Assembly (NCBI GenBank): GCA_031425795.1
Contig: JANPJZ010000228.1
Span: 18-64,017 of the forward strand
DNA: 64,000 nucleotides
Direction: 5' to 3'
Source of the DNA: Rhodobacter sp.
Lineage (GTDB): Bacteria; Pseudomonadota; Alphaproteobacteria; Rhodobacterales; Rhodobacteraceae
The notes beneath the pieces were generated by a model. It saw only the letters and a program-made list of their open reading frames with translations, was not told the DNA's origin and searched no databases. This document shows positions 5,401 through 25,895 of this stretch, in pieces. Position numbers and translations under genes: made by a program. Numbering within the stretch: position 1 is the first letter of the stretch; the number at the start of each line of letters is the position of its first letter.

Positions 5401-5787
5401 TCACGCGGGGCGGTTAAGGCGGCGTTCCGCGAGCGACTGGAGACGGGACGCATTCTCGGGCGTCTGCTCCATGAGCGGAGCACCCGGGACATTCATCTTC
5501 GGGGCCCGCAGCACGGCTGGGCCCATCGCGAACCGGCTGACCCCGCCCGCCTGGGCCTTCATGTACGACCGGCCACCCGTAGCCAGGCCGCCAGCAGTGG
5601 CTCCGATCAGGGCATCCCGCAGGCCATGGCTCTCGCCATCACCCATGCTGCCCATCACGCCACCAAGAAGACCGCCAACGACGGCACCAGGGAGAGCCCC
5701 GTGCGCCGCATGGTTCCAGGCGCGAGCCGTCGGGACCACTGGCCCCGACGCCCGCTTTTCCATCACCTCGGTGGCGAAGAACTCCAT
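5401..5787 (-). CDS. Glycine-zipper putative internal virion protein with FFATE..KRAS leader
   Basis: MEFFATEVMEKRAS; GAVVGGLLGGVMG and ALIGATAGGLATGG. Confidence 0.75.
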   Translation of the reverse strand: MEFFATEVMEKRASGPVVPTARAWNHAAHGALPGAVVGGLLGGVMGSMGDGESHGLRDALIGATAGGLATGGRSYMKAQAGGVSRFAMGPAVLRAPKMNVPGAPLMEQTPENASRLQSLAERRLNRPA

Positions 5788-5789
5788 GA

Positions 5790-6599
5790 TCAGAAGCCCA
5801 GGGCCGTGAGCTGGGCACCGCTCTGGGTGTTGAACTCCATCGGGATGCAGGCGTCAGCCTGGAAGCTGGCGGTCTCGGTGATCAGCGTGGAGCTGGACGA
5901 GACGCGGAAGCTGTGGGCGCTGATGAAGCAGTCTTCGATGTAGATCGCGCCGTAGTTCTGGTTCTTGTTGTCGCGGAGCAGGAAGCCGAAGCCGAACGGG
6001 TGGCTGAACAGCTCGGACATCAAGTTGAAGAAGAACGAGTTGGGCTGCTGGCTGATCTCGGTGTCGGCAGCCGCGAAGCTACCGGGCTCGAAGAAGATCG
6101 GCGGGAACTGCTGGCCGCTGTTGTCCGGCTGCGCGATCACGGACGAGATGCTGTCCGGGCTGCCACCCTTGCCCAGAACCTTGCCGTTGGCCATCTGGAT
6201 CGAGTTGGGGTAGTAGGCGTACAGGGCGCGCAGCAAGCTGGGGCCGTTGAACATCACGCGGCCCAGGTCCCCGACGACCTGCACCCGGCCGCCGGCCTGG
6301 TAGCTGCGGCGGGAGCCGATCTCGAACATCTTCTGGACGTTCTGGACCTGCTGGACGCCGAAGGATTCGACCAGGCCGATGGGGTAGAGCGCGTCCTTGC
6401 CGGTGGCAGCGGCAGAGATGCCGCCGCTGAGCCCGCCGTTGGCCAGGCTGACGTTGCCCGTCATGTCGCTGACCCGGGGCGGGCCAGCGAACAGGAGGCA
6501 GGTCTCGGCGTTGATATAACGGCCGGACCGAATGGCCGCCTCGACGTGTTGCGTCGAGCGGTTCCAGTTGTTGATCGAGGTCGTTGCGGGGATGGCCAC
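5790..6599 (-). CDS. Tail tube protein (contractile tail)
   Basis: PIGLVESFGVQQ..FEIGS.RSY...GR motif; directly downstream of the sheath. Confidence 0.8.
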   Translation of the reverse strand: MAIPATTSINNWNRSTQHVEAAIRSGRYINAETCLLFAGPPRVSDMTGNVSLANGGLSGGISAAATGKDALYPIGLVESFGVQQVQNVQKMFEIGSRRSYQAGGRVQVVGDLGRVMFNGPSLLRALYAYYPNSIQMANGKVLGKGGSPDSISSVIAQPDNSGQQFPPIFFEPGSFAAADTEISQQPNSFFFNLMSELFSHPFGFGFLLRDNKNQNYGAIYIEDCFISAHSFRVSSSSTLITETASFQADACIPMEFNTQSGAQLTALGF

Positions 6600-6612
6600 G
6601 GGGTGTTCCTTA

Positions 6613-9600
6613 TCAGCCGACGTTCAGGGTGATGTCGATAGCGTTGCAGGGGTAGAGCGGCTGCCCACGCACCTTGATGTCGACGCTGTCCGGACGGTCA
6701 GCGTTCTGCGTCAGGTCCACGAACCGGGAGCCGCGGCCGATGATGCGGCTGTCGACCAGGGCCTTGTTCACGGACTCGCCGATGCCCCGGAGCTGGGTCA
6801 GCAGTTCGGCCGTGATGTTGTTCTTGCCGATGTACGGCCGGTACGACTCGCGGTAGTACTTAGCGGTGTAGTCCATGGCCACGTTGATCGACACCTCGCG
6901 GGTTTCGATCGAGGTCATGTCAGTCGTCAGCTGGTGGCGAATCGTGGTGCTGGAGCCCCGCGATGCCTGCACCAGGATCAGGTTACCGCCCTCCGCGATC
7001 GTGTTGAGCTGATCGGGTCCGAAGTAGGTGTTGCTGGTGTCGAGCTTGTCGATGCCAGGAACGGCCGTGTTCGTGAGGGGCTGGGACGGCGACAGGGTGG
7101 CGTGGTAGCCGGCCAGGGCCGCACAGCCGAAATGCATCGGAGCACGGATCTGGATGTCGACGTTGGACGGCCCGGTCTTGTCGGTGTAGGTCAGGTAGCA
7201 GGCTTCCGGACGCACCATCGACAGGCGGGGATTCCCGTACCCCTTGGCTTCGTCGCGCCAGATTTCGGCCTGCTGCGACTTGCTGTACGGGTAGGTGTCG
7301 ATCTTGAAGTAGACGGTGGGCGGCACGGTGGCGGTGTTGCCATCCGGGTCGGTGACCGAGGCCGGGAAGGCCTCATAGACCGTGCAGTACTGGCCGACAG
7401 TGTTGACTGAGCGGATGCGGCGCTGGACCAGCACGGCAGAACCCGTGTCGCTGGTGGTCAGGACGCTGAGCATCTGGCCGGGCTGGACCAGGGCCCAGTT
7501 GACGCCAGGGCCATTGAACTGGGTGGCGATCGGGGTGTACGGGCCGGAGCCCGTGTAGCCGACGTTGCCCTGCAAGGCCGTGGTGCCCGTCTGGGGCAGG
7601 ATGGGGTCCGACGTGCGCAGCGCCGTGGAGATGTAGGCCCGGCGCTCGTGCTTGTTGAGTGGCTGGCTCTGCGTCGAGACATGCGCGCTCACCAGGTCGA
7701 GGACGTCCTTATCCTGGCTGAGGGGCACGATGAAGTAGGCTTCCTCGTTGCCGACCGTTTCCAGGGCCTTGGCGTAGCCGTCGACCGTGTCGCTGTCCAC
7801 CGAGACCACAAAGATCACCGTGGTGCCATTGGCCCCGCCGGTGCGGGTCGCCATGTCGGCGCCCAGGGCCAGGGGGTTGCGCGGGTGGATCATGCCGAGG
7901 GTGGCTTCGATCTCGTCGCGCGATGCCACTTCCATGACGCCGTTGGCCGCGAGGTCCGACCGGGCCGCCTCGTAGGAGACCGTCACGGGGCCGCTGTACC
8001 CGGTGGTGACCACCTGGCGCAGGTCGTAGGCGATCTCCTGGTCTGCAGCACGGATGCCGCGGTGAATCTCCAACGAGGTCGCGCCACTGACACCAGCCGG
8101 CAGCGGCGCAGCCAGCGTGATGCGGTAGGGGGCGACATCGAGGATCTCGATGCTGTACGTCGCGCCTCCCGCAGTGAAGCGGACGAAGTCGCCGTTCAGG
8201 TTCGGGCCGTCGTTGCGGCCAGCGAAGCAGCGCAGCAGCGAGATGGCGGACACGTTGGCCGAGGTCAGGTTCAGCGTAGCCGTCGAGGACGCCAGGCCAT
8301 CCGGGTTCACGACCGAGATCGTGCCGTTCACCTGGTCGATGGCGGTGATCTTGTAGTCGAGGAACAGGCTGGTCCAGGTGTCGGGGGCGACCGGGGTCTT
8401 CCCGAAACCGCCAGTGAGGCGCAGCCAGTCGCCGACCTTGGCGGTCGTCAGCAGGCTCTTCCAGAGCGGGGCGTTGGAGCCGTAGGGCGAGCCAGCAACC
8501 AGCGGAGCGCCGGGTGCCAGGGTGACGGCCGCACTGGAGGTGGTCTCAGGGATCTTGACTGGCGTGGCGTGGGCCGTGGTGCCGTCAGTCGTGAGAACTG
8601 CCGTGAGGTTGCCGCCGGAGATATGCAGCGTGCAGGCTTCGACACCGATGCCGAACGGCGTGGTGGTCTCAGCGTCGTCCAGGCTGCGGGCCTGGCTCAT
8701 GGCGGTTACGGTGTTGAAGTCCACGCCGGTGGCGTTGAGGACCCAGCCGCTGGTCGTCCCGACGTTCCGGGGCGAGGCGAAGCCGACGAAGTTCGAGGCC
8801 ACGACGGCCACGGCCGACGCGCCGGACCCGCCGCCACCGGAGATGGTCACCGTCGGGACGCTGGTGTAGCCGGCGCCGGGGGTGAGCAGGTTGATCTGCA
8901 CCACGACACCGCCGACCACGACGGCCGCTGCGGTTGCCTGAGTCACTGCGCCGCCGCCGGAGAGGACCACCGTTGGCGTGCTGCTGTAGTTCAGGCCACC
9001 GCTGGTGACGTTGATGTTGGCGAGGGGAGCTGCGGTGCCGCTGCTCACGCCACGAATGTGGGCCGTGCCGCTGGTCGGGGCCTGGTAGCCGCGCAGCTCG
9101 GTCGTGCCAGCGCCGAGGGCGCCGGTCGGCAGGAAGCGGTTGTGGATTTCGAGGTAGCCGCTGGTGTTCAGCTTCTCCAGGCGCAGGCGGGTGATCCGCT
9201 CAGCAGCCGTGGCGGAACCCGAAGCGTCACGGATCTTCTCAGCGACGCGGTAGCGACCGGCAGCCAGGACCGGAGCCTTGACCACCAGGATGGAACCAAC
9301 CGTCAGGCTTTCGACCACGCCGAGCGAGTCGAAGTCCAGGCTGCTGTCGTCGAGGAAGATGCCATCGGCGGTGCCGCTGGCAGTGTCGTCGTCGAGCGTG
9401 TCGAGGTTGTTGTTCCGGCTGGAGAACAGGCTGTATTCCAAGCCTGCCTGCAACGAAGCCGGGATGGTCAGCACGCTGTTGTCCGAGGACAAGAGAACGT
9501 CGGTGCCGACGTGCAGCTGGAACGTGCCGATGGACGCGCCAAGGGCGTCAACCGCGTCGAACTTCACGAGGATCGTGGTGGGGTCCACCGTCGCGGCAGC

Positions 9601-9786
9601 GGCCAGGTTCGGCAGCGCAGTCGTCAGCTGGGTGCCAGCCGAATACGTGCCAGCGATCTGGTCGACTTCGATCTGGCGGGAGGGTCCGATGATGCAGACC
9701 GGCAGCTGGGGACGAAGGCGCGGGGTGGAGCTCACAACCCGCTGCTGGGTGACGGTGGCATCAGGCGGGATGTAGTTCGAGGGCAT
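6613..9786 (-). CDS. Tail sheath protein with large beta-rich insertion domains
   Basis: N-terminal RPQLPVCIIGP; C-terminal sheath signature (RHQLTTDMTSIETREVSI..DY, PLYPCNAIDITL); internal PTVTISGGGGSGA repeats. Confidence 0.85.
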   Translation of the reverse strand: MPSNYIPPDATVTQQRVVSSTPRLRPQLPVCIIGPSRQIEVDQIAGTYSAGTQLTTALPNLAAAATVDPTTILVKFDAVDALGASIGTFQLHVGTDVLLSSDNSVLTIPASLQAGLEYSLFSSRNNNLDTLDDDTASGTADGIFLDDSSLDFDSLGVVESLTVGSILVVKAPVLAAGRYRVAEKIRDASGSATAAERITRLRLEKLNTSGYLEIHNRFLPTGALGAGTTELRGYQAPTSGTAHIRGVSSGTAAPLANINVTSGGLNYSSTPTVVLSGGGAVTQATAAAVVVGGVVVQINLLTPGAGYTSVPTVTISGGGGSGASAVAVVASNFVGFASPRNVGTTSGWVLNATGVDFNTVTAMSQARSLDDAETTTPFGIGVEACTLHISGGNLTAVLTTDGTTAHATPVKIPETTSSAAVTLAPGAPLVAGSPYGSNAPLWKSLLTTAKVGDWLRLTGGFGKTPVAPDTWTSLFLDYKITAIDQVNGTISVVNPDGLASSTATLNLTSANVSAISLLRCFAGRNDGPNLNGDFVRFTAGGATYSIEILDVAPYRITLAAPLPAGVSGATSLEIHRGIRAADQEIAYDLRQVVTTGYSGPVTVSYEAARSDLAANGVMEVASRDEIEATLGMIHPRNPLALGADMATRTGGANGTTVIFVVSVDSDTVDGYAKALETVGNEEAYFIVPLSQDKDVLDLVSAHVSTQSQPLNKHERRAYISTALRTSDPILPQTGTTALQGNVGYTGSGPYTPIATQFNGPGVNWALVQPGQMLSVLTTSDTGSAVLVQRRIRSVNTVGQYCTVYEAFPASVTDPDGNTATVPPTVYFKIDTYPYSKSQQAEIWRDEAKGYGNPRLSMVRPEACYLTYTDKTGPSNVDIQIRAPMHFGCAALAGYHATLSPSQPLTNTAVPGIDKLDTSNTYFGPDQLNTIAEGGNLILVQASRGSSTTIRHQLTTDMTSIETREVSINVAMDYTAKYYRESYRPYIGKNNITAELLTQLRGIGESVNKALVDSRIIGRGSRFVDLTQNADRPDSVDIKVRGQPLYPCNAIDITLNVG

Positions 9787-9811
9787 TTCGGCGGATCCTT
9801 GTGGTGGACGC

Positions 9812-9838
9812 ATCCTACAACGCCCGGGCCCGCCGCAA
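9812..9838 (-). promoter_or_regulatory. Promoter TTGCGG-N15-TAGGAT for the sheath/tube operon
   Basis: Member of the 15-bp-spacer class. Confidence 0.7.
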
Positions 9839-9844
9839 TGGCGG

Positions 9845-11603: not shown

Positions 11604-11605
11604 GC

Positions 11606-13618
11606 TCAGCCTTCCATCTTGAGGCGGGAGATCGACGGGAAGTCGCGCCAGTTGAGGGTGAAGAAGTGGTCCGGGTGCGCCGCCCCGATGCCGATGGCCC
11701 GGGCGCCGGCCAGATTCTCCGGCCTGTCGTCAACGAGCACGCAGTTTTCAGGGTCGATGCCGTGACGATGGATGGCCACCAGCAGCATGTGGGGGTTCGG
11801 CTTGTGCCGGGGGTCCGGCCCGTCGGGCAGACACAGCACGTCCTCGAGCACACCGCCGAGCAGCCGGTTGGCGACCTCGAGCGACTGCATGATGGTGTCC
11901 GCCGTCTGATCTACCGAGTAGCAGGACCGGTTCGTCACGCCCACTAGGGCGTAGCCGCGTTGCTTCAGGCCCGTGAGCAACTCGAGCACGCCCGGGCGAA
12001 CCGTCTGGGCATGCGGGTCGCTCCAGTCGTGGCAGACCACGCAGGTCTCGTCCAGGTCCAGGAGGATCCCGGGGCGCAGCTCCTCGACGTAGGGGATAAA
12101 CGTGTGCTCCTGCTCCCCCGCCTTCGGGGCGATGGCGCCGGGCCCGAAGGTCTGGGTGTTGAACGCGCTCTCTTTGACTTCGGGGCGCATGACGGCGTCG
12201 GCGGTTTCGCCGCGCAGGATCCGCAGGAATGGCTCGTTGAGGGCCTGCTTTTCGTGGGCCCGGTCGTAGAGGTATTCGTCGATGCTCTTGTCAGGGTTCC
12301 GCTGCCGGCGCAGGAGCCGGTCGATCATGCCCTTCTGCGGGACGGTGTGGAAGCGCTGGACCTCAACGTGGCGCTCTTCCGGCGGCAGCGCGGCGTGGCT
12401 CTTGTAGCGGATGCCGCGGGCCCGGACCTGGTTGATCTGTTCCTCATGCCAATGCGGCTCCATGATGGCAATGTGCTTGGTGCCCTTCAGGTCCAGGCCC
12501 TCGGCCCCGGCGCCCGAGATCAGCAGCACCGGCGACTTGCCGGTGTTGTAGGCCTCGATGGCCTCCTTGCGCTCGTTGTCGTTCATCGCGCCGGTGAAGA
12601 TGCGGTGCTGGATGCCCTTGGCCGTGAGGCCCCGGCTCAGCGGTTCAATGCCGGTGCTGAGGAATGCGGAATAGGCCACGCCCCGGTAATTTGGATCGCT
12701 GGCGTGCCGCTTGGCGATCTCACCGACCGCCGCGTTGATCTTGGCGGCATCCGCGTCAGTGGCGCCCTTGTTGAACTGGCCCGGGTGGTTGGACACCTGC
12801 CGGGGCCCATTGAAAAAGGCCTGGAAATCGGCCTCCTCGCTCTTGGCCGGCGGGATGCCATGGCGGATCTTGTATGCGATGCGCGGGTAGCGACCCAGGA
12901 CGAAATCGTAGGCCGCCTGCTGCTTGTCACTCATCGGCACTTCGACGATCGACTCGGAATGCGACGGGAAATGCTCGCGGTTCGCCGCCTGGTAGAAGTC
13001 CACCTTTCCGCGCACCGCGTTTTCAAAGTCGTGCAGGTTCTTCGGCACTTTGATCTTGCCGGGTTTGGCCCCCATCATGCGGCCCCAGAAGCCGACGGGC
13101 ACCTCCCGTGTCTCGACGAAATGCTCCTTGAATTCCTTCGGGTCGCTGGGCAGCGACCCCGGAGCGATTGCGTTGATGAGCGGGGCTACCTCGTGCGGTG
13201 CATTACGCACCGGGGTGCCGGTGAGCAGCAGCTTCTTGGCTGATGGCAGATCCGTGGCCAGGGCGCTACGAGCGGAGCCGGCCTGGCCCATGCGGGCGGC
13301 CTCGTCGAAGGCCACCAGGGAGCCGGCGGCCTGGGCTCGGAAGGCGGGGTCGTTGATGCGGCGGGTAGCCTCCTCGTAGGAGACCACGTCGGTGGGGCCG
13401 GTGTGGCCGGATTCGGCGATGCCCTTGCGGAAGTTGTTGCGCAGGGCGGCTGGCACGATGGCAAGCAGCGGGAGGTTGTTCGCCTTCGCAGCGTTGATGG
13501 AGGTCAGCGTCTTACCAGTACCAACCCCATGGTAAACCAGCTTCCCCGGGTTGTCCGGGTCCTTGAGGTCGTCGGCGACGCGCTCTTGGTGCGGCAGTGG
13601 GGTGAAGTTCAGGGCCAT
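11606..13618 (-). CDS. SNF2/SF2-type helicase fused to a C-terminal HAD-family phosphatase
   Basis: HGVGTGKT, DEAA, LTGTP, GAEGLDLK, EPHW, QVRARGIR; HAD motifs LLDLDET, VTN, KPNP, VDD. Confidence 0.85.
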   Translation of the reverse strand: MALNFTPLPHQERVADDLKDPDNPGKLVYHGVGTGKTLTSINAAKANNLPLLAIVPAALRNNFRKGIAESGHTGPTDVVSYEEATRRINDPAFRAQAAGSLVAFDEAARMGQAGSARSALATDLPSAKKLLLTGTPVRNAPHEVAPLINAIAPGSLPSDPKEFKEHFVETREVPVGFWGRMMGAKPGKIKVPKNLHDFENAVRGKVDFYQAANREHFPSHSESIVEVPMSDKQQAAYDFVLGRYPRIAYKIRHGIPPAKSEEADFQAFFNGPRQVSNHPGQFNKGATDADAAKINAAVGEIAKRHASDPNYRGVAYSAFLSTGIEPLSRGLTAKGIQHRIFTGAMNDNERKEAIEAYNTGKSPVLLISGAGAEGLDLKGTKHIAIMEPHWHEEQINQVRARGIRYKSHAALPPEERHVEVQRFHTVPQKGMIDRLLRRQRNPDKSIDEYLYDRAHEKQALNEPFLRILRGETADAVMRPEVKESAFNTQTFGPGAIAPKAGEQEHTFIPYVEELRPGILLDLDETCVVCHDWSDPHAQTVRPGVLELLTGLKQRGYALVGVTNRSCYSVDQTADTIMQSLEVANRLLGGVLEDVLCLPDGPDPRHKPNPHMLLVAIHRHGIDPENCVLVDDRPENLAGARAIGIGAAHPDHFFTLNWRDFPSISRLKMEG

Positions 13619-13658: not shown

Positions 13659-14081
13659 TCACTCGCCGCGACGGCGCCGCTGCAGCTCGAGCAGGAAGGT
13701 GTACCGCTGCGGCGACGGGCTTTCGTTCGCCAGCTTCCGCAGCTGCGCGTCGTCCATCTCGCGGATCACCTTCTGCCCTGCCGCCCGGGCCTCATCCACC
13801 GTCAGGACTCCAGCCACCTTGGGCCGGAAGCCCTGGCTCTCGAGGTCCGTCCGCGTCAGGTACTGGCCGACCGCGGTGGACTTCTCATTGAACTGGCCGA
13901 GCAGGTGCTGGCCCTGGGCTCGAACTGTTGGGTCTGGGTGGCTGAGCAGGGCGTGGAACTTGCGGGCCCGGATGATCTGCTCAGGAGACCGTGTTGCCTT
14001 CAGGACATTGAGGAGGTCATTGGTCGGCGGGATGTGCGCCAGGGCGGCGAGCTTTTCGGTGGCGAAGAACGTCAGGGACAT
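13659..14081 (-). CDS. Hypothetical protein with FFATEKLAA leader
   Basis: ATG 14081 sits 1 nt after the stop of the upstream gene; MSLTFFATEKLAA. Confidence 0.75.
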   Translation of the reverse strand: MSLTFFATEKLAALAHIPPTNDLLNVLKATRSPEQIIRARKFHALLSHPDPTVRAQGQHLLGQFNEKSTAVGQYLTRTDLESQGFRPKVAGVLTVDEARAAGQKVIREMDDAQLRKLANESPSPQRYTFLLELQRRRRGE

Positions 14082-14082: not shown

Positions 14083-15219
14083 TCAGCGATCCTCACCAGC
14101 AGAAAGCATTTTCTTGAGGCCATAGCCCGCCAAGCCGGCCCCGGCCAGGCCGACACCGAGCCCGCCCCACCGGCCAGCGTTCGCCACCGTCGATGCCCGG
14201 CGATGCGCCGTAGTGTAGCTCTTCAGCGGGCCCGTGATGTTGCCGTAGAGGCTCCCCTGCGACAGCACGTTGTGCCCCAGCGTTTCCTTCGCGAGCACCG
14301 GAACATCCGGGTGGTTGATCAGATGCCGTGCGACAGCGGACTGCCCAGCGGGTGACATCTTGTGGAAGTCTCCGGCCGCCAGGTGGGCCACGTCGGTGTG
14401 GGAGCCTGTCACGCGGAGGGCCTCGTGCGGGTCAGCCTGGAGTTTTCCGACGACGGCGGCCAGCGGGCGGTCATGGACCCCCGCGACCAGGGCATCGTGG
14501 GGATTGCCTTCGCCGCTGGCCCCGGCCATCCGGTCGACGGCCGCCTGATAGCCCGCCGGATTCGAGGCCAGCAGCTGGTCGTGCTGCGTGACGGCAACGT
14601 CGCCGGACAAGCCGGTCTTCGCCCCGAAATGCGTGCCAATCAGCTCCCGATACCGTTCGTGCGCGGGCTGGTGCGACAGCACGGAACCCGCACTGATACC
14701 GTGCTCCGCTGCGGCCTGGTGGAGCGCGTCGTACTGGGCGCCCTGGAAGGCGTGCGTGAGCGTCCGCGAACCCTGGGCCTCTTCGTCGAGCTTGAGCACG
14801 GCGGGAAGCTGGCCCTGCCGGAACGCCCGGTAATGGCCCTGGCGGTCCTCATCCCAGCCACCCCGCCCAACCACGTTGGCAGTGAGCGGATTGGAGTAGA
14901 CCTTGCGCATCAAACCGTAGCCAGTGCCCAGGCCGTGGATGCGTTCGTTCATGAGGCGGGAACCGCCCCGGGTGTACGACATCACGCGCTCGGCTGCCGG
15001 CGTGGTGGCCTTGGCCGAGGTGTCGAAGTCCGTGAGTGCGGAGGCCACACCGGCTGACGGCGCGACGTTCTGCAGCGCGGTGTGACCCCGGTGCGCAGCG
15101 TAGCCACCAAGGGCCCCCGCCCCCGCCAGCATCGCGCCGCCGCCGAGCAGCCCGGCACCGACGAGCTTATCGTCCTGTTCCTTCCGGACCTGGTCGAGAT
15201 CTGCGTTACTGACGGGCAT
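14083..15219 (-). CDS. Putative internal/ejection protein with Gly-rich hydrophobic helices at both ends
   Basis: LVGAGLLGGGAMLAGAGALGG and WGGLGVGLAGAGLAGYGL. Confidence 0.7.
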   Translation of the reverse strand: MPVSNADLDQVRKEQDDKLVGAGLLGGGAMLAGAGALGGYAAHRGHTALQNVAPSAGVASALTDFDTSAKATTPAAERVMSYTRGGSRLMNERIHGLGTGYGLMRKVYSNPLTANVVGRGGWDEDRQGHYRAFRQGQLPAVLKLDEEAQGSRTLTHAFQGAQYDALHQAAAEHGISAGSVLSHQPAHERYRELIGTHFGAKTGLSGDVAVTQHDQLLASNPAGYQAAVDRMAGASGEGNPHDALVAGVHDRPLAAVVGKLQADPHEALRVTGSHTDVAHLAAGDFHKMSPAGQSAVARHLINHPDVPVLAKETLGHNVLSQGSLYGNITGPLKSYTTAHRRASTVANAGRWGGLGVGLAGAGLAGYGLKKMLSAGEDR

Positions 15220-16126
15220 CGGGGGCCTCGCGATCTTTCAGCGCATGGTAGGCCAGTGCCCCGAGGCCAAGGGCCCCGAGACCACCTGCGACCAGGGCGG
15301 CCGGACGACCGTAGCGGGCCAGGCCACGCTGCACGATGTTCGGGCTGCCGGCCGCTGCAGCCTGCTGGGCCAGCATCGGCGTCGGGCCCGGGGCTTTGGC
15401 TTTTGGTGGCAGAGCGGTGGCCGCCGCGTGCAGGCGATTCCACTCAGCAGCATCGCCTGGCTTGGTCGCGAACTGTTCGATAGCCTGGTGCAGCTCGGCG
15501 TGGCCCGGGGCCGCGGGGTCTGCGAGGGCCAGGCGCTGGCGCAGGTGACCGACCGGCGTTTCATCAATCGGAGCCTCGTGCAGCATCTTGGCCCGGGCAC
15601 CATTGGTGGAGAGGTCGTGCGGCGCGCCCGGAGCCATGGCCCGAACCTTCGCGTGCAGGGCCTCGAGGTGTGCGGGATCCGGCTCGCCCGTCGGGTTGTT
15701 CCGGAGCGGATACATGGCGGACTGGACGTCGGAGAAGCCGGGGCTTTTCGCATCACGGTTCAGGAGATCTGCATAGATCTCCTGGACTTTGAGGTCCGAT
15801 TCGCGGGATGCCCGCTTGGTGAATGCTTCGGTGGCCCACAGATCCATAGTCATGTTCCTTGCCGTTTTGTACGCGACGATCCCCGAGTCCTGACAGGCTT
15901 TCGCGAAGCCATCCCACCACGCCTGCGCCACGTTTGGCTGCGGGCCCTGGGCCAGACGCTCGCGCATCACACCAGGGTCACCAGACTGGACGAACTCGTA
16001 GCCATTCTCGAACTCACTCGCCTGGTCGGTTCCCGCGAGCGGGTTGGCCGTAAGTGTCGGCTGAGCAACGTCACCACGCATCGGAGCGGGGTCGCCCGTG
16101 GCGCGGATCGAGGGGTCAACGGGCAT
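15206..16126 (-). CDS. Putative internal/ejection protein with C-terminal Gly-rich helix
   Basis: Internal LWATEAFTKRAS; C-terminal ALVAGGLGALGLGALAY. Confidence 0.7.
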   Translation of the reverse strand: MPVDPSIRATGDPAPMRGDVAQPTLTANPLAGTDQASEFENGYEFVQSGDPGVMRERLAQGPQPNVAQAWWDGFAKACQDSGIVAYKTARNMTMDLWATEAFTKRASRESDLKVQEIYADLLNRDAKSPGFSDVQSAMYPLRNNPTGEPDPAHLEALHAKVRAMAPGAPHDLSTNGARAKMLHEAPIDETPVGHLRQRLALADPAAPGHAELHQAIEQFATKPGDAAEWNRLHAAATALPPKAKAPGPTPMLAQQAAAAGSPNIVQRGLARYGRPAALVAGGLGALGLGALAYHALKDREAPDARQ

Positions 16127-16133
16127 GCCGACT

Positions 16134-16160
16134 AGCCTACCAAAGCGAAACGGCCGGCAA
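16134..16160 (-). promoter_or_regulatory. Promoter TTGCCG-N15-TAGGCT, leaderless (7 nt to ATG); -35 lies inside a hairpin at about 16144-16177
   Basis: Member of the 15-bp-spacer class. Confidence 0.7.
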
Positions 16161-16199
16161 GTGCCGGCCGTTTCGCTCTTCTTTTTACCTCGAGCGGCG

Positions 16200-16676
16200 T
16201 CACCAGAGCACGCCGTAGTAGTTTTGGATCAGCCCATACTCCGAAGGCATGCTCTGCCCACTGAGCGCGACCGAAATGTTGATGGCGGCCTTGAGGTCGC
16301 CTTTCTTGCGTTCGTAGTCAGCGGCCCAGCGCTCGATCCAGCCGCTGTACTCGCCAGCCTTGGCATGGTCGTCACCGCTGGTGCCACCATCGGACGACGG
16401 CATGTGCTCGCGGCTGTGCCAGATGCCGGCCTGGGTCAGGGCCTCGAGCGCGGCCTTCTGCAGGAGCAAGTACTTGTTGGGGTGCGAACGCAGGGTCACG
16501 CCAGCCAGGAGCGGTGGCGTCGTGTTCCAATCGATCAGGGCCATGATCAGGCACTGCCGCAGTTCGTCGTCCTGCGATTCGTACTGGCCGACGAGCAAGC
16601 GATTGAGTTGCCGCTTGTCGCGGATCATGTTCCGCAACGAGGCAACAGCGCGCTCAAGAACTTGCTCGTCGTTCAT
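16200..16676 (-). CDS. Head-tail adaptor/connector protein
   Basis: LRxxxRDxxxLNRL..DWNTTPP..LLL..DGG pattern typical of large-phage adaptors; position after the capsid genes. Confidence 0.6.
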   Translation of the reverse strand: MNDEQVLERAVASLRNMIRDKRQLNRLLVGQYESQDDELRQCLIMALIDWNTTPPLLAGVTLRSHPNKYLLLQKAALEALTQAGIWHSREHMPSSDGGTSGDDHAKAGEYSGWIERWAADYERKKGDLKAAINISVALSGQSMPSEYGLIQNYYGVLW

Positions 16677-16679
16677 TCG

Positions 16680-17144
16680 TCAGATCCCGAACCGGCGCAT
16701 GGCCGCGTTGGCAGCCAGCTGGGTGCCGACGCCTTCGATGGCCCCGGTGGTGTTCTGCGGCAGGGTGTCGAGATCGAACTGGTTATGCGCGCCACGGCGC
16801 ATGGCCTCCTCGATCAGGGCATTCTGTTCCGTCGCAGCGCCGTGCCCATGAAATCCGCCGATGAGCGCACCGACTGGCGCACCGATCGCGGCACCGAGCG
16901 GCCCCCCAAACGCCAGACCAGTTCCGCCGCCAGCCAGCGCGCCAGCGCCAGCCCCGATCACGGCGCGAGCCGTGGGGCTGGACATCCCGTCCGTCACCGG
17001 TGCGGAAGAGCCGCCGTTGCCTGGCAGCCAGCGCGACTTCGCCTGCTCGATCTGAGCCTGCTGTTCTGGCGTGAGATCGCCGCGGGGCATGAACCCCGCG
17101 CGCTTCTGGATCACCTCGGTTGCGAAGAACGCAAACTTGTCCAT
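16680..17144 (-). CDS. Glycine-zipper putative internal protein with FFATE..KRAG leader
   Basis: MDKFAFFATEVIQKRAG; AVIGAGAGALAGGGTGLAFGGPLGAAIGAPVGALIGG. Confidence 0.75.
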   Translation of the reverse strand: MDKFAFFATEVIQKRAGFMPRGDLTPEQQAQIEQAKSRWLPGNGGSSAPVTDGMSSPTARAVIGAGAGALAGGGTGLAFGGPLGAAIGAPVGALIGGFHGHGAATEQNALIEEAMRRGAHNQFDLDTLPQNTTGAIEGVGTQLAANAAMRRFGI

Positions 17145-18378: not shown

Positions 18379-19374
18379 CTAGAGGGCAGGCGGCGTCCAG
18401 GGGAGCGGCGGGGCTGGTGGCGGAAGAGTTGCCTGCAGCAGCCCGGCGACCTCCGCATGCTTGGCCACGATTTTGTCGGCCCGTTCGATGATAGCCCGCG
18501 CGATGACCAGGAGCTCATCGGGCAAGGCATCCCGTTTCATGTAGTTGATATGGGACGCCGCCCATACGAGGTTCGCAGGTTCTGCTACCAGCAGCGGGAA
18601 CCGCGAAGTCGGCCAGACGTGATCCATCGACGCCGTCGAGCCCATCGCAATCGGGACACCAGTGTAAAAGCACTTCCCCTCCTGCTGTTGAAACTTGGTC
18701 AGCATGATCGGGGTGAGCGCGTTACCAGCCGTCGCGCCCACTCGCGTGTGGAGGATTTTGTTGACCCAGTGGTGGGCACACTGGTCAGACTCTGGTAGTG
18801 CCGGCTGGGTGCAGTACCTGCACTTCCCGTCCGCGACACGCCGTGCCGCGGAGGCCGTAGAGGCCCCGGCGGCTGAGCGCTTTACCGCGCAGCCGTCGCA
18901 CTCGCGGGCCTCGCTCTCTTTGGGTCCACCGCACGTGCCACAGCTGCCGGCGGCGATACGCAATTCCCGGGTTTTGCGTGCCCGCTGGGCCTCTCCGGGC
19001 CGGCGTGCCTCTGCGCATGCTGCGCAACGTGTGTGCCCCGCCTCTGCGGGTTCTGCTGCGCAGGTGACGCACAGCCCAGCCTGTTTTGCCCGTTGGGCCC
19101 GGTCCCGGGTCCGCCGGGCGATACCAGGGCCGTACTTGTCGATGCAGGTTTGGCAGGTGACGCGCTCGTCCGTCCGGGCGCCTCCACACACGATGCACAG
19201 GCAGGCGGCCATGCGGCTTTCGCGGATGCGGGTCTGGCGATCCCGGTTCCGGGTCCGCGACTTCTCACGGCAGTCGTCGCAGCTATAGGTGCCAGTGGTG
19301 TTGGGAACGCCGCATGACGGGCAGAGCCCTGCTGCGATCCGGCGGTTGATGGTATTATCGGGTTTCGTATCCAT
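18379..19374 (-). CDS. HNH endonuclease with five tandem Cys4-type Zn-finger repeats
   Basis: Five CxxC-x9-11-CxxC/H units, then KCFYTG..SMDHVWP..NLVW..IN. Confidence 0.8.
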   Translation of the reverse strand: MDTKPDNTINRRIAAGLCPSCGVPNTTGTYSCDDCREKSRTRNRDRQTRIRESRMAACLCIVCGGARTDERVTCQTCIDKYGPGIARRTRDRAQRAKQAGLCVTCAAEPAEAGHTRCAACAEARRPGEAQRARKTRELRIAAGSCGTCGGPKESEARECDGCAVKRSAAGASTASAARRVADGKCRYCTQPALPESDQCAHHWVNKILHTRVGATAGNALTPIMLTKFQQQEGKCFYTGVPIAMGSTASMDHVWPTSRFPLLVAEPANLVWAASHINYMKRDALPDELLVIARAIIERADKIVAKHAEVAGLLQATLPPPAPPLPWTPPAL

Positions 19375-19471: not shown

Positions 19472-20404
19472 TCAATCTACCAGCGTGACCCGTGCGCAGG
19501 CGGGGGCATTGGCGATAGACATTCCGATGTACTCCCATGCGAGCATAGAAATACTGTTGAACACCTTGCGAACACCGAACTTGGTGCTGTCCAGGACGAG
19601 GAAGCGGCCCAGGGCCTTCTCCTCGGCGTAGAAGTACACCATGCGGGCGGGCTCGCCGCTGGCCAGGGTGGCCGTCGGGTGACGGAAGAGCTCGTCCTTG
19701 ATCGACACGATGAGCTGCAGACCACCGAGCTGGTAGTACTTGAAGCCTTCGATGGTGATCTCCTTCAGGAGGTCGCTGCCGACGTCCTGATAGGTCATCG
19801 TGTAGAAGTCGTTGAACAGGACCTTGGGCATCAGCACCTTGCGGGCGATGAGGCGCTTGGACTCGATCAGGTTCATGCCGACCTTGATGGCGCCCTTGGT
19901 CAGCGTGCCACCGGCACCGGTGGAGTAGCTCACCAGGTTGCCAGCGAGCAGCGCAGCTGCGTCGGTGGCGGCCAGGAAGTACGTGTCCTCGATCTCTTCG
20001 ATCTCGCGGACCGTGTTCTCCTCGATGATCTTGGTCACCGGCTGGGTGTACGCCATCAGCTCGATTTCCTTCTTCTCGAACTTCTTCGAGGCGATCTCGA
20101 AGATGTTGATAGCGTAGCGGTTGCCGGTGATGTACTCGGCATCCGGTTCGCCCTTGAAGGACAGTGCCTTGGCGGGACCGACGTTGACTTCCTTCTCGTC
20201 GATGAACTGGAGCTGGTCGTGGGCGGTCGAGACCTGGAGCTCGTGACGGCCGACGACGCGGGGGGTCAGGACCTGGCGGGCGAAGGAACGCTCGCGCAGC
20301 TTGGTGGCGATGAAGAGGCCGGCCACTTCGGCGACCTTCTGGTTGTTGGCCGAGATCTCGCGGATGAAGGTCTCGGTGTCGCTCTTGAAGATGTCGTATT
20401 CCAT
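19472..20404 (-). CDS. Major capsid protein (HK97 fold)
   Basis: 310 aa; KLRERSFARQVL..EKE..A; follows protease/scaffold/decoration genes; strongly biased codons. Confidence 0.8.
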   Translation of the reverse strand: MEYDIFKSDTETFIREISANNQKVAEVAGLFIATKLRERSFARQVLTPRVVGRHELQVSTAHDQLQFIDEKEVNVGPAKALSFKGEPDAEYITGNRYAINIFEIASKKFEKKEIELMAYTQPVTKIIEENTVREIEEIEDTYFLAATDAAALLAGNLVSYSTGAGGTLTKGAIKVGMNLIESKRLIARKVLMPKVLFNDFYTMTYQDVGSDLLKEITIEGFKYYQLGGLQLIVSIKDELFRHPTATLASGEPARMVYFYAEEKALGRFLVLDSTKFGVRKVFNSISMLAWEYIGMSIANAPACARVTLVD

Positions 20405-21689: not shown

Positions 21690-21690
21690 G

Positions 21691-22254
21691 TCAGATCTCC
21701 AGGAGAGCGGCGGCACCGGCGCCGGGGACCACCAGCGGATCACGGCCGGCCCAGGCGGCGAGTTCGGGCACGACGGACGCGACCTTGGAGGCTTCCGTGG
21801 TGGCCAGGAGAGCCTGGGTGGCAGGGGCACGTTCGGGCGTCCAGGCGGAGGACTTCGTGGCTTCGTCCAGCGAGTCGAGCTGCAGGGCAGCCAACCGCAC
21901 GACTTCAGCCGGCGACAAGCCCGCGATCTTCTGTTCCGCGATCAGGGTCGCAGCGCTGCGCAGGGCAGCGAGCATGACGGTGTCAGCCAGGGCCGCAGCC
22001 TTGGTGACTTCGTTGTCCCGATGCGCGATGTACTTCTGCGCCAGCTTCAGCGCATCGTCGCGGCAGTCTTCCAGCGTGGGGTACGAAACCCCGTCCAGCT
22101 GCAGCTGCTCGAAGTAGCGAGCTGCGAGCTTCGCCACTTCGACCGTGACGCCCAGGGCTTCGGCGGTCTTCTCCACCGGCGTCACCGCAGGGGCAGCGAT
22201 GCCGCTGCGGACCAGCGTTTCGTGATAGAAGTCGGATTCAGATTTCAGAGCCAT
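21691..22254 (-). CDS. Hypothetical head protein (K-x-A motifs)
   Basis: KTAE, KLAA, KLAQ, KVAS. Confidence 0.7.
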   Translation of the reverse strand: MALKSESDFYHETLVRSGIAAPAVTPVEKTAEALGVTVEVAKLAARYFEQLQLDGVSYPTLEDCRDDALKLAQKYIAHRDNEVTKAAALADTVMLAALRSAATLIAEQKIAGLSPAEVVRLAALQLDSLDEATKSSAWTPERAPATQALLATTEASKVASVVPELAAWAGRDPLVVPGAGAAALLEI

Positions 22255-22284
22255 GGGTACTCACGCGTTTGGGTGATAGGAGCC

Positions 22285-22311
22285 ATGGTAGCCCCGACAA
22301 AAACAACGCAA
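22285..22311 (-). promoter_or_regulatory. Promoter TTGCGT-N15-TACCAT
   Basis: -35 is embedded in the arm of the upstream terminator. Confidence 0.7.
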
Positions 22312-22338
22312 CCGGTGGCGTGGGCCACCGGTTGCGTT
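22298..22338 (-). terminator. Terminator after the scaffold gene (15-bp perfect stem)
   Basis: aacgcaaccggtggc / gccaccggttgcgtt followed by gttttt on the - strand. Confidence 0.8.
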
Positions 22339-22362
22339 CAGCAAACCATCGACTGGAAGGAC

Positions 22363-23109
22363 TCAGCCCTTGCCGTGGCTCACGGGCTGCTCGACGCCGC
22401 CGGAGGCCATACCGGGGTTGCCGGGCATGGTCACGGTTTCCTCGAAGCGCAGGAGCTTGCCGTCGACGCCGCGGACGGGCTGACGGGTACCAGCGCTGGC
22501 GCCGGCCTGGTACATCGTGGTGTTCTGGTTGCGCTCAGCCTGGGCGAGGACCTCGCTGTCGGCGGGATTGGCCCCGGAGCCCCAGAAGCTGGTGACCCAG
22601 CCGGCGTCGGGCTGGCTGCCGATGACTTCGGCGCTCTTGGCGATCTGAATCGCACGGTTGTGCAGATCGGCGGGGGTGCAGCCGGTCATGGCGCAGGTGG
22701 CAGTCACGTCGGCGAGCGACGCCTGCTTGGAGGCCAGGCGGACAGCGCAGGCTTCCTTGGCCATGCCGTGGTACTGCAGGGCACCGCGGGATTCCAGCTC
22801 AGTGACCATGGCCTGCTTGGTGGCCTCTTCGGCGGTCTTCTGCGCTTCGAGCTCCTGGGCGTAGAGGACCTCAGCAGCCTTGACGGGGACGTCGCCGTAG
22901 CCGGCGGTCTTGGCCCAATCCTGAGCGGGGGTGGTGGTCACGGTGGCGACTTTCTGGACGGGGGCGGCGACGGGGGCGGGAACAGGAGCCGCGGCGACGG
23001 GCGCAGCGGTCTTGGCCGGAACCGGAGCAGCGGCCACGGGGGCGGCAGCGACGGGAGCGGCGGTTTTGGAGGGGGCGGCGACGAATTCGCCGAGGGAGCG
23101 GACAGCCAT
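22363..23109 (-). CDS. Putative scaffolding protein with AAPV repeats
   Basis: Between protease and capsid; low-complexity; many K-x-A motifs. Confidence 0.6.
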   Translation of the reverse strand: MAVRSLGEFVAAPSKTAAPVAAAPVAAAPVPAKTAAPVAAAPVPAPVAAPVQKVATVTTTPAQDWAKTAGYGDVPVKAAEVLYAQELEAQKTAEEATKQAMVTELESRGALQYHGMAKEACAVRLASKQASLADVTATCAMTGCTPADLHNRAIQIAKSAEVIGSQPDAGWVTSFWGSGANPADSEVLAQAERNQNTTMYQAGASAGTRQPVRGVDGKLLRFEETVTMPGNPGMASGGVEQPVSHGKG

Positions 23110-23116
23110 GATTTCC

Positions 23117-24502
23117 TCAGAGGGGAAGACCTACGCCAGCGTGGGCGAGGTGGTAGAGAGCGGAGGTGATATTGCCAGAGGCTTGCAGTTCGGCGAGTGC
23201 CGGGTTTTTCGCTGCAATTTTGGCAATGTGCGTGATCGGCAAAGAGCTCAGGCAAGCGCGGTAGAACGCGTAGTATTCAGCGGCGAGCTGATGCCCTTCT
23301 GCAGCGATCTTCGCAGGCTCCCAACCAGTGGCGAGACAAGGCGCCACGTAGCCAGACCGAGCGGCCATCTTGCTGCGCAGGACGGTATACGCGGACGGAG
23401 AGAATTTGTCCAGCGGCACACCAGGGAAGCCTTGGATGTCACCGTTCCAACTGGCCGCCTTGGAGGGTTCGACTGCGAGCGTGGCGTGGATCAGCTCGTG
23501 CGGTGACAGAACGATGCCCATGAGAGCAGCCGTTCCGAGCAACGCGGGCAGGCCATCGACGCTGGCAGCCTTGAGCTCGTCCGGCGTGTACTCGGGCACC
23601 AGGTCGATTTTGGCGACCGGGGTCTCGTACGGAACGTCGCCGGCGGTGCCCCGGGACACCAGGGGGATCTGCTTCTCGATCTCGGACCGCTTCTGGGCCC
23701 AGTTGTGGCTCAGGTGGTCGCGGGTGTCTTCCGCGTGGTTCACCCGGCGGACAGCGTCCAGGGTGTGCGAGGCGACCTTCGAGAGGCTGAATGCCACCGG
23801 GTCAGCAGGCACGCCGACATCCGAGTAGTCGAAGAACCGGCAGCCGTAGTTCTCGGCCGTGACCTGACGCCCGTCAGGCATCACTTCGTTCATGTGGTTC
23901 TTGAGATGGTCGCAGCGCTGGTGAATGAATTCGTTTTCGGCACCGCAGTAGCGGCACTTCTCGTGGCTGATGCGGGTGCCCATCGAGCCCGTGAGATACC
24001 CACGCTGCTCGAACTTCTTCATGATGTTCGGATCGCAGTTCAGGCCCAGTTCGGGAATGGGTTCCCGGGCAATGCGAATGATCAGTTCCACGCGCCGCAT
24101 CGGGGTGTTCCAGCCGGCGCAGCCGATGTCGCCGTAGGCCGGATCCCGGTCGCTGTTCGCGTGATTCTTGAAGAACTTCGCGGTCTCGAACGTCTTGTAG
24201 CGCGGCACGCAGATGCCGGCCAGGCGGCCAGTATTCTTGGCGGCCTCTTCGGGGCCTTGCAGCCCCGTCAGCTGATCGCTGGTGAACACGTCACCATTGA
24301 GGTTGCTGCCATAGAAGTCACCGTCGCTCATCGCGATCATGTGCACGTAGCCGAAGCGTGGATCAGGCTTCAACTCCGCGCAGTACCGCTCGATGTCCGG
24401 CGGCACGTGCGTGTCGAACTGTCCAATCGCGATCTTCGTCGCTTCGGCGAAGAGCGGATTGATCTCGAGCGGAATGCCGGTGATGATCTTGGTGATCGCC
24501 AT
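23117..24502 (-). CDS. Prohead (capsid maturation) protease with Zn-finger insert
   Basis: YGSNLNGD; GSMG..KCRYCG..RCDH; FFDYSDVGVPADPVAFSLSKVAS. Confidence 0.8.
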   Translation of the reverse strand: MAITKIITGIPLEINPLFAEATKIAIGQFDTHVPPDIERYCAELKPDPRFGYVHMIAMSDGDFYGSNLNGDVFTSDQLTGLQGPEEAAKNTGRLAGICVPRYKTFETAKFFKNHANSDRDPAYGDIGCAGWNTPMRRVELIIRIAREPIPELGLNCDPNIMKKFEQRGYLTGSMGTRISHEKCRYCGAENEFIHQRCDHLKNHMNEVMPDGRQVTAENYGCRFFDYSDVGVPADPVAFSLSKVASHTLDAVRRVNHAEDTRDHLSHNWAQKRSEIEKQIPLVSRGTAGDVPYETPVAKIDLVPEYTPDELKAASVDGLPALLGTAALMGIVLSPHELIHATLAVEPSKAASWNGDIQGFPGVPLDKFSPSAYTVLRSKMAARSGYVAPCLATGWEPAKIAAEGHQLAAEYYAFYRACLSSLPITHIAKIAAKNPALAELQASGNITSALYHLAHAGVGLPL

Positions 24503-24505
24503 GGC

Positions 24506-25486
24506 TCAGACCTGCGACACCGTGGGCAAGCTCACCGCGGTGGGCGAGGGCTTCGTGAGCAGAGCCTGCTTGGCGGTGGTGATGCGGCTGGCGATCTCAG
24601 TGGTCCAGCCAGTCACCTTGGCCCGGGCGTCGGCGTCGACGGCGCTGTCCAGGCTGAACTGGTGAGGCGAGGAGCTGCGCACCGGCACCAGGACGGGGCC
24701 GCCGGCGAGCACGAACGTGTTCGGCGCGGTGGACGGCAGCGTCTGGAAGCTGAGCTGGGTCACGATGGCATAGCCAGCGGTGGCCTGGCCGCTGTTGAAG
24801 AACAGACCGACGGCAACGCCGGGCAGCGCGATCGTGGCGACGGCGAGCTGGGTGAACGTCAGGCCATTGTCCAGGCTGTAGGACAGGGTGATGTTCTCGC
24901 TGACCCGGGCGGCGCGCAGCAGGATGCCGTGCGGGTTGGTCCGGGCGAACGTCGCGACGGATGGCATCGCGCCGCCCTCCGTCGTGCGCCGACGGTACTG
25001 GATGCCGAGTGCCGACTGGCTGCCGCCCCAGCCGAAGAGGAGGCCAGGCGCTGCGTCACCGGGAGCCGTGAAGACACCGATGCCGAGCATGAACCCGTCG
25101 GTGGCCACCGGGTCGATGAAGCCCTGGACGTGGTCGATGCGGAACATGAATTCCCAGTCGCCGATGACCTGGGCGTTCTGGTGGAACATTCCGGGGTTCG
25201 CGGACACCGTGGCCGGGAAGACGCCGGAGGCCGTCAGTTCGTAGCCAGCCAGGCCGGGGTTGAAGTTAACCGAGCCGGCCACCGCCACGGTGCCGATGTC
25301 GCCGGCCGTCAGGGGGATGGCCAGCGAGGTCTGGGGGACCGTCGGCACGTAGGCAAACGTGCCCACGCGGTCGATCCGGGGCTCACCGTAGGCCGTGAAA
25401 TAGCTGGTCTCCACCGGGTCAACTTCGACCGCGACGGAGCCCTTGTACACGCCGGCCTGGGCTTCGATGGTCTTGGTGATGATCAT
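24506..25486 (-). CDS. Virion protein with ConA/LamG-like lectin domain
   Basis: Beta-sandwich with LLRAARVSENITLSYSLDNGLTFTQL. Confidence 0.5.
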   Translation of the reverse strand: MIITKTIEAQAGVYKGSVAVEVDPVETSYFTAYGEPRIDRVGTFAYVPTVPQTSLAIPLTAGDIGTVAVAGSVNFNPGLAGYELTASGVFPATVSANPGMFHQNAQVIGDWEFMFRIDHVQGFIDPVATDGFMLGIGVFTAPGDAAPGLLFGWGGSQSALGIQYRRRTTEGGAMPSVATFARTNPHGILLRAARVSENITLSYSLDNGLTFTQLAVATIALPGVAVGLFFNSGQATAGYAIVTQLSFQTLPSTAPNTFVLAGGPVLVPVRSSSPHQFSLDSAVDADARAKVTGWTTEIASRITTAKQALLTKPSPTAVSLPTVSQV

Positions 25487-25487
25487 T

Positions 25488-25895
25488 TTAGCGCACCTTC
25501 AGGGCGGGCATGTGAGGGGCCGGGATGGGGAACGGAATCGGCGTCGGGCTCGGGGCCTTCGGAGGGATTGCCATGTGGTGGCCGGAGGACGGGTCCACCG
25601 CATCGTGGACTGCGCCAAGCGCGTTCAACTCATGCAGCGGATCCTGGGCCTTTTCGGCGGCGTACATTGCCTTGATCTTGCGCGGGTCGGCACCGAGAGC
25701 CTGCATGCCCTCGTAAGAGTCATGCCGGATCTGCCGAGGAACGGTCACCGGCAGGCCAGGCACACCGTGCAGGGTCATGAGGTGGCTGGCGTCGCCACGC
25801 CGATGCGCGGCAGCCTGCTGGGTAGCAGGGCCGGCCGGCAGGGCAACGGCGGCGCGCTTCGCGATGTGGTCAGTGGCGTAGAAGAGCATGATCAA
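25488..25895 (-). CDS. Hypothetical protein with FYATD..KRAA leader
   Basis: MIMLFYATDHIAKRAA; tight coupling to neighbours. Confidence 0.65.
   Translation of the reverse strand: MIMLFYATDHIAKRAAVALPAGPATQQAAAHRRGDASHLMTLHGVPGLPVTVPRQIRHDSYEGMQALGADPRKIKAMYAAEKAQDPLHELNALGAVHDAVDPSSGHHMAIPPKAPSPTPIPFPIPAPHMPALKVR

Follow-up and report, generated by a model that had tools for sequence, protein, structure and literature searches.

A possible two-part propeptide tag, [FW]ATE plus K-x-A, on unrelated proteins of an uncultured myovirus-like phage

We analysed a 64,000-nucleotide stretch of contig JANPJZ010000228.1 (hereafter, the window), which derives from an uncultured myovirus-like phage (65% GC; 63–70% along the window), and studied a short leader peptide that recurs on otherwise unrelated proteins encoded there. 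The leader has two parts, [FW]-A-[TS]-E and, 0–7 residues further on, K-x-A-[S/G/A]. We propose that it is a two-part propeptide tag on procapsid-bound cargo, with [FW]ATE as a putative address and K-x-A as the putative cut site of the phage's own prohead protease, a reading to which we give an even chance of being correct. Sequence comparisons further indicate a K-x-A propeptide code of much wider reach, common to most head-module proteins and to distant relatives including Bacillus phage G and Salmonella phage Arash, of which the leader is an elaboration particular to this clade.

A first-pass annotation of the window had quoted five such peptides, four N-terminal and one internal. All five were found on the minus strand where it had put them, and two further internal copies that it had missed bring the number in the window to seven. 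Four window proteins begin with M-x(1-5)-[FW/FY]AT[ED]. These are a 128-amino-acid (aa) protein with a Gly-zipper-like segment, encoded by the last gene, after the tail tube gene (5401–5787, minus strand; quoted peptide MEFFATEVMEKRAS; leader MEFFATEVMEKRA at 5749–5787, minus strand, followed by S); a 140-aa protein (13659–14081, minus strand; quoted peptide MSLTFFATEKLAA; leader MSLTFFATEKLA at 14046–14081, minus strand, followed by A); a 154-aa protein with a Gly-zipper-like segment (16680–17144, minus strand; quoted peptide MDKFAFFATEVIQKRAG; leader MDKFAFFATEVIQKRA at 17097–17144, minus strand, followed by G); and a 133-aa protein listed at 25488–25895 (minus strand; quoted peptide M(I)MLFYATDHIAKRAA). 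For the last of these, the ATG at 25889, directly past an upstream TGA, is a likelier start than the listed TTG at 25895, which gives a gene at 25488–25889 (minus strand) with the leader MLFYATDHIAKRA at 25851–25889 (minus strand), followed by A.

The quoted internal peptide MTMDLWATEAFTKRAS (15809–15853, minus strand) lies inside the open reading frame (ORF) 15206–16126 and corresponds to residues 92–106 of its 306-aa product (MTMDLWATEAFTKRA, followed by S). As for an internal start near 15853, the 91 codons upstream look coding (GC content at third codon positions of 0.70–0.80), and AAGGA stands 8 nt before the second ATG (15847), where a nested start may exist. One of the two additional copies, FFATEALEQRKTAV (47375–47413, minus strand; FFATEALEQRKTA, followed by V), is internal to a 237-aa ORF (46871–47584, minus strand) downstream of the adjoining RNA polymerase gene, and is preceded by a weak DUF5661 match. 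The other, FFNWGTEPMKTAGLTDA, is a degenerate copy (26927–26956, minus strand; NWGTEPMKTA, followed by G) in a 574-aa head protein (25892–27616, minus strand); it is conserved in orthologues, all of which keep W and K-x-A-G, with P in place of E in some.

These occurrences are far more numerous than chance would give. The pattern [FLWY][FYW]AT[ED] is found 6 times in the 46 window proteins against 0.16 expected, with none of 2000 within-protein shuffles reaching 6, and the bipartite form is found 7 times against 0.24 expected from shuffles. In the six DNA copies of the motif, synonymous positions vary and the flanks are unrelated. The motif is therefore constrained as a peptide and not as a DNA repeat, which rules out an explanation at the level of DNA or RNA.

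Megablast gave no DNA-level match to 5401–25895 among GenBank phages, and searches of IMG/VR using the protease alone or the major capsid protein (MCP) alone returned no relatives; the loci had to be reached by profile search. Uncultured relatives form a clade in the protein database, on contigs of up to 200 kb, and 68 related loci were retrieved, with a clade set of 16 non-redundant genomes. The nearest cultured relatives by protease, at 31–35% identity, are Vibrio phages D181, D148 and D69, Salmonella phage Arash and Bacillus phage G (gp19). Gene order is kept among the relatives: one leader gene adjoins the protease gene, and a cluster of leader genes lies between the gene of the 158-aa family and the SNF2 helicase gene. 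The motif is present in at least 10 of the 16 clade genomes, whose proteases are 42–86% identical to that of the window.

Among 26 clear copies in the clade, A is invariant, T or S follows (21 and 5 copies), then E or D (24 and 2), and the residue before A is W, F or Y (18, 7 and 1). All 26 have K-x-A 0–7 residues past the Glu, and S, G or A comes next in 18. About 15 of them start no more than 13 residues from the start Met, so that an N-terminal position is far commoner than expected by chance. The leader is maintained in individual families: four orthologues of the 154-aa protein keep FFATE..KRAG, the orthologue in clade member L066 has PWATEALMRRKTA followed by S, and orthologues of the 133-aa protein carry YFATEQLAKRAA (L065) and MFATEAVNRRKQAA (L066). 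One ORF of L052 holds two copies, and in the L052 orthologue of the 306-aa ORF 15206–16126 the leader lies at residue 162; alignment of the 306-aa family with putative orthologues was itself uninformative, these sequences being Gly-rich and divergent. The mature parts of the clade's leader proteins fall into about 24 clusters that are unrelated by BLAST, and no two mature parts from the window cluster. This bears out the first-pass description of a portable short leader ending in K-x-A on proteins that are otherwise unrelated, as judged by BLASTP. In distant loci (proteases at or below 39% identity), K-x-A is universal and [FW]A[TS]E-like leaders are only sporadic, so [FW]ATE is specific to the clade.

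The second part of the leader has a much wider distribution. Reading the N-termini of head-module proteins, we found K-x-A near the start of most of them, as [YF]LK.AG in the scaffold-like protein, FADTVKAAG in a 470-aa protein, [WYF]xP[ML]K[VLI]A in a 131-aa family and F[DA]xxxK.A in the protease. We then scored all residue pairs with gaps of 0–2 in 106 head-module proteins from six genomes. K.A ranked first (424 observed, 179 expected; z=20), the next best pair having z<9, and pairs that would mark cutting after Glu were not enriched in the same proteins (A.E z=0.0, S.E z=−1.0, G.E z=−2.5, L.E z=−1.0). Within the first 30 residues, K.A was observed 84 times against 19.6 expected and K.A[SGA] 45 times against 5.6 expected, an enrichment of 4–8-fold, while the controls A.K, R.A, K.G, K.S, E.A, KA and K..A were at or below expectation (ratios 0.2–1.3). 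In the window, K.A[SGA] reached 3.7 times expectation in head proteins (z=8) versus 1.2 times in non-head proteins (z=1), so the enrichment is specific to the head module. It recurs in the head modules of Arash (4.15 times) and phage G (3.1 times), and in 27 distant IMG/VR loci with this protease (612 observed, 192 expected; control ratio 0.95), every one of which is enriched.

The map of K.A[SGA] sites in the window suggests how such a code might be used. There are six sites in the 470-aa protein, six in the protease and four in each of the scaffold-like 248-aa and 187-aa proteins, and none in the MCP, a 326-aa protein or the 158-aa protein. Leader proteins have one site each, directly past the tag, with a second in the 140-aa protein and V as the next residue in the 237-aa copy. 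This is the pattern that would be expected if scaffold and core proteins were degraded and cargo were only trimmed. An Ala/Pro-rich scaffold-like protein with four sites is encoded at 22363–23109 (minus strand), its orthologues beginning with the [YF]LK.AG leader, and the conserved 470-aa head-module protein (28010–29422, minus strand) has the N-terminal leader ...PFADTVKAA followed by G and five of its six sites among residues 1–140. The MCP (HK97-like; 19472–20404, minus strand; phrog_2522, E 1.7e-7) may also lose about 25 residues from its N-terminus, because its N-terminal arm has a conserved K-V-A-E at residues 23–26 (KVAEAAG in orthologues, KEAGAA in Arash). The C-terminal half of the 574-aa head protein contains a coiled-coil-like segment followed by acidic, Pro-rich tandem repeats (E-M-P-P-E/G-A...) and resembles an internal core or scaffold protein.

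The candidate enzyme is a 461-aa protein (23117–24502, minus strand; phrog_18299, E 2.4e-6) with a catalytic domain at about residues 31–242 and a helical C-terminal domain. Its AlphaFold2 model has a predicted local distance difference test score (pLDDT) of 81, with residues 1–30 and 241–282 disordered. The model has 142 matches in BFVD at E≤1e-3, many of them named prohead protease, including phage G gp19 (E 6e-16), phiRSL1 and PaBG; gp19 is annotated as a head maturation protease (PMC12484599). Similarity to the fold of T4 gp21 (5jbl) is weak (E 0.3; template-modelling score 0.46–0.49), and the protein has no Pfam match (S77 included) and no PDB sequence match, and does not belong to the gp21 family by sequence. 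The modelled fold, the position between the portal/terminase and scaffold/MCP genes and the gene order kept in relatives together indicate that this ORF is a prohead (head maturation) protease, with the invariant H114 and S173 and the near-invariant H54 as candidate catalytic residues. The protease also has a conserved CxxC...CxH zinc-ribbon-like insertion at about residues 181–200, in which C183, C186 and C197 are invariant; the insertion is unusual for prohead proteases and is likewise present in Arash gp222 and phage G gp19.

K-x-A sites flank the protease domain. K23-I-A25 (24428–24436) is in the disordered N-terminus, and K242-V-A244 (23771–23779), at the domain end, is invariant in the clade alignment, mostly with S, A or G next and then a hypervariable linker; five further K.A[SGA] sites follow in the C-terminal domain. 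A profile search placed the protease in a family of 3,156 clusters at 50% identity, and we counted flanking sites among the best 150 of these. K-[VIL]-A occurs at the domain end in 132 of 142 superfamily representatives, and K-x-A lies just upstream of the fold in 104 of 110, against 23.6 expected. The catalytic domain is thus bracketed by K-x-A, as would be expected for self-release.

From these observations we infer that K-x-A is cut, that [FW]ATE acts in targeting and that virions contain the cargo. In the proposed scheme, [FW]-A-[TS]-E, which usually precedes an aromatic or aliphatic pair, would be a docking element particular to the clade and would recruit unrelated cargo to the core during assembly (the protease and/or the scaffold), and K-x-A followed by S, G or A would be the scissile site, cut after Ala by the protease at 23117–24502. 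After assembly, the protease would release itself at the K-x-A sites on either side of its catalytic domain, cut up the scaffold-like proteins at multiple K-x-A sites and trim the 12–17-residue leader off each cargo protein, the mature part of which would stay in the head; the leader-type peptide FFATEVMEKRASGPVV is a putative substrate. Internal copies could mark propeptides that are long, or the points at which cargo ORFs have been joined in the manner of a polyprotein. The first-pass idea of a cleavable leader resembling a capsid-targeting sequence (CTS) is supported in silico, with corrections, in that K-x-A behaves statistically like a prohead protease site, with head-specific enrichment, flanking of the protease and multiple sites in scaffolds.

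Several points weigh against this scheme. About 11 of the 26 copies (~40%) are internal, a poor fit to a strict N-terminal signal, and the earlier description of the leader as N-terminal stands as an enrichment and not as a rule. Two leader genes are located outside the head module, at 5401–5787, after the tail tube gene, and at 46871–47584, adjoining the RNA polymerase gene. The [FW]ATE part is patchy, being absent from the fetched regions of L002, L067, L068, L057 and L058. The enrichment tests include non-independent orthologues, with the effect separately seen in the 27 distant loci and the two cultured phages. Structure or catalysis, and not cutting, could also account for the conservation of K-V-A where the protease domain ends. 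The published proteomes of Arash (whose supplement consists of gene tables), phage G and PaBG give no peptide-level N-termini or cleavage sites.

The strongest competing explanation is that the whole tag is an extended substrate-recognition (exosite) sequence, with [FW]ATE merely improving cutting at K-x-A and the cargo entering the head through other parts of each protein. Many head proteins have K-x-A leaders that lack [FW]ATE and carry an aromatic residue shortly before the K-x-A (the scaffold, the protease and the 131-aa family), and L002, L067 and L068 have plain K-x-A leaders on small Gly-rich proteins of the cargo cluster, both as this explanation would have it. However, a spacing of 0–7 residues is hard to fit to a single binding cleft, and a simple hydrophobic anchor would not require A-T-E to be kept so strictly. 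The variable spacer suggests that the two elements are read separately, which favours a docking or targeting role over a pure substrate extension, and we consider the exosite explanation unlikely.

Less probable still is an uncleaved interaction helix that is kept on the mature protein, for example to bind the portal, the capsid interior or DNA, with K-x-A arising by coincidence from richness in Lys and Ala. The large internal fraction of copies would suit such a helix. Against this, K.A is enriched and A.K, K..A, KA and R.A are not; moreover, K.A lies within 7 residues in all 26 leaders, and the same site flanks the protease domain. We regard this possibility as improbable.

Cleavage might instead occur after the Glu of A-T-E, in the manner of the T4 (L/I-x-E) and phiKZ/SPN3US (S/A/G-x-E) proteases, and would then remove only 6–10 residues. 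A-T-E fits the A-X-E motif of SPN3US and phiKZ (PMC5694885), the resulting leader length would match that of the T4 CTS, and the protease model is weakly similar in fold to T4 gp21. Yet A.E, S.E and G.E are not enriched in head proteins, scaffold leaders have no A-x-E, Pro replaces Glu in several orthologues of the 574-aa family in which K-x-A-G is invariant, and Pfam S77 does not match the protease. The lack of A.E enrichment and the Glu-to-Pro replacements rule out A-x-E as a general specificity, and a Glu cut in the leaders themselves seems to us very doubtful.

We give very little credence to a leader read by a host system, whether a host protease or a secretion or lipoprotein pathway. There is a precedent in the host protease Prp, which acts on the capsid and scaffold leaders of staphylococcal phage 80-alpha. 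However, the leaders here carry E or D and K or R within 12 residues, with no hydrophobic stretch and no Cys lipobox, and so do not qualify as Sec, Tat or lipoprotein signal peptides, and K-x-A enrichment tracks the phage protease family across 33 to 68% GC and across unrelated hosts (Bacillus, Salmonella). Least credible of all is that the shared N-termini have no signal function and only reflect the descent of small paralogous proteins from one ancestor, or recent recombination: several carriers do have Gly-rich segments in common, but their mature parts are unrelated by BLAST, the DNA copies differ in synonymous sites and flanks, and the motif is kept across genomes whose proteases are only 42–55% identical while the rest of each protein diverges.

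The first-pass annotation had assigned glycine-zipper or transmembrane helices to three of the five leader proteins, which holds qualitatively, since the 128-, 154- and 306-aa proteins have Gly-rich segments with Kyte–Doolittle values of 1.4–1.65 over 19 residues, and fails at the level of Pfam families, where the Gly-zipper matches (E 2.5e-4 to 7e-4) fall under the gathering scores. The 128-aa protein scored 21.1 bits against a cutoff of 28.9 (Gly-zipper_YMGG / Gly-zipper_Omp), and the 154-aa protein 20.1 and 20.0 bits against cutoffs of 28.9 and 25. One weak DUF5661 match and one weak LPD39 match among the cargo proteins were also sub-threshold, and no leader protein had anything above threshold in PHROGs, Pfam or PADLOC. 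A homologue search with the 128-aa protein gave no match, and the single-sequence AlphaFold2 model of the 237-aa protein was unusable (pLDDT 36). To call the cargo membrane-active ejection proteins, as had been suggested, is a guess from these weak Gly-zipper, DUF5661 and LPD39 matches. DUF5661-like segments (EH...DHL.E.P.YY..L) also occur in cargo-cluster proteins of several clade members (L066, 17572–19173; L067, from 21128 onward), and the one in the ORF at 46871–47584 (minus strand) occupies residues 22–50, some 20 residues ahead of the internal copy of the leader.

The closest functional parallel is the CTS of phage T4, a short N-terminal peptide of 10–20 residues on the internal proteins IPI–III and Alt (Mullaney and Black 1996; reviewed in PMC5694885 and PMC9024508). 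The CTS ends in the cleavage site of the prohead protease, and its cargo is presumed to leave the head together with the DNA. Here, too, a short N-terminal peptide is found on several unrelated proteins that would, by inference from sequence, be packaged in the head. Every leader ends in K-x-A, which has the statistical signature of a prohead protease site. Unlike in T4, there is no sequence similarity to the CTS, the putative cut falls after the Ala of K-x-A, where T4 cuts after the Glu of L/I-x-E, the protease is from another family and copies are also internal. The CTS concept would thus recur in this phage, but neither the sequence nor the protease family nor the predicted specificity would be that of T4.

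C-terminal auto-cleavage of the prohead protease and capsid-targeting propeptides of 10–20 residues are established in T4, phiKZ and SPN3US, and the head-protein propeptides of phiKZ, 201phi2-1 and SPN3US are cut at S/A/G-X-E by gp175/gp245 proteases (PMC5694885). The present phage resembles phiKZ and SPN3US as a large phage encoding a multisubunit RNA polymerase, in bearing putative propeptides on many head and putative ejection proteins (there either short or >100 residues), and in the predicted C-terminal auto-cleavage of the protease and cutting of scaffold or core proteins at multiple sites. It differs in that A-x-E is not enriched and the predicted specificity is K-x-A, and the strict additional [FW]ATE element is not described for those phages.

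A second parallel is herpesvirus assemblin, which cuts (V/L/I)-x-A/S, between A and S, at its R and M sites; cleavage at one of these, where the protease domain ends on its C-terminal side, frees the domain from a scaffold-like extension, and the fold class is common to phage prohead proteases. Ala at P1 and a small P1' residue would be alike in the two cases, Lys is dominant at P3 here, and the resemblance is one of specificity and architecture only. In phage P1 DarB, an N-terminal segment of about 30 residues suffices for capsid entry, and the cargo is delivered to the host (PMC9024508). Unlike the leader described here, the P1 signal is not a motif shared across several proteins, and no common cleavage motif has been reported for it. 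Encapsulin cargo-loading peptides are short conserved peptides that direct unrelated cargo to an HK97-fold shell; these are usually C-terminal and uncleaved and belong to cellular nanocompartments, so that the analogy is conceptual only.

A long minus-strand gene block runs from about 5.4 to 36 kb of the window. Profile searches identified a tail sheath at 6613–9813, as well as the large terminase, helicase, RNA polymerase and sigma-like genes described below. The large terminase (979 aa; 29464–32403, minus strand) contains an intein that includes a LAGLIDADG homing endonuclease (Pfam Intein_splicing E 2e-12, LAGLIDADG_3 E 4e-16), and inteins are also found in the terminases of L001, L066 and L068. 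Between the MCP gene and the gene of a 242-aa protein, there is a Cys-rich 331-aa ORF (18379–19374, minus strand), a probable homing endonuclease in which CxxC pairs recur and the C-terminus is HNH-like; it had no Pfam match at E 1e-3, and L004 has a similar Cys-rich ORF at the corresponding place (15887–16813). L066 carries a TnpB / Cas12f-like ORF (OrfB_IS605, Cas12f1-like_TNB; 7757–8974, minus strand) inside its head module, adjoining a leader-bearing gene. In the middle of the structural gene block, 11606–13618 (minus strand) encodes an SNF2-family helicase fused to a HAD-type phosphatase domain, and the gene occupies the same position in L001, L052, L066 and L068. Further along, a single ORF (47577–53981, minus strand; 2134 aa) joins a beta-like part (Rpb2 domains) and a beta'-like part (Rpb1 domains) of a multisubunit RNA polymerase, and a 234-aa sigma-like protein resembling sigma-70 region 3 is encoded near it (56128–56832, minus strand); Arash has comparable RNA polymerase and sigma genes.

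The above analyses tentatively suggest, with somewhat less than even confidence, that a large and mostly uncultured phage lineage uses a two-part code, in which [FW]ATE would mean load and K-x-A would mean cut, and that the associated protease superfamily has an assemblin-like, previously undescribed specificity, with Ala at P1 and Lys at P3. If this is true, the tag would be a sequence rule for head-internal and probably host-injected proteins in a widespread, otherwise unannotated phage lineage, and the whole packaged and ejected proteome could become predictable from sequence. A specificity for K-x-A, with the cut after Ala, would be predicted for a prohead-protease superfamily of >3,000 clusters at 50% identity, including those of the cultured Bacillus phage G and Salmonella phage Arash. 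Foreign proteins might also be packaged in capsids by means of this compact tag of 12–17 residues, as with the T4 CTS. The solution of a targeting peptide plus a protease site would then have arisen with another sequence and another protease specificity than in the T4/phiKZ system.

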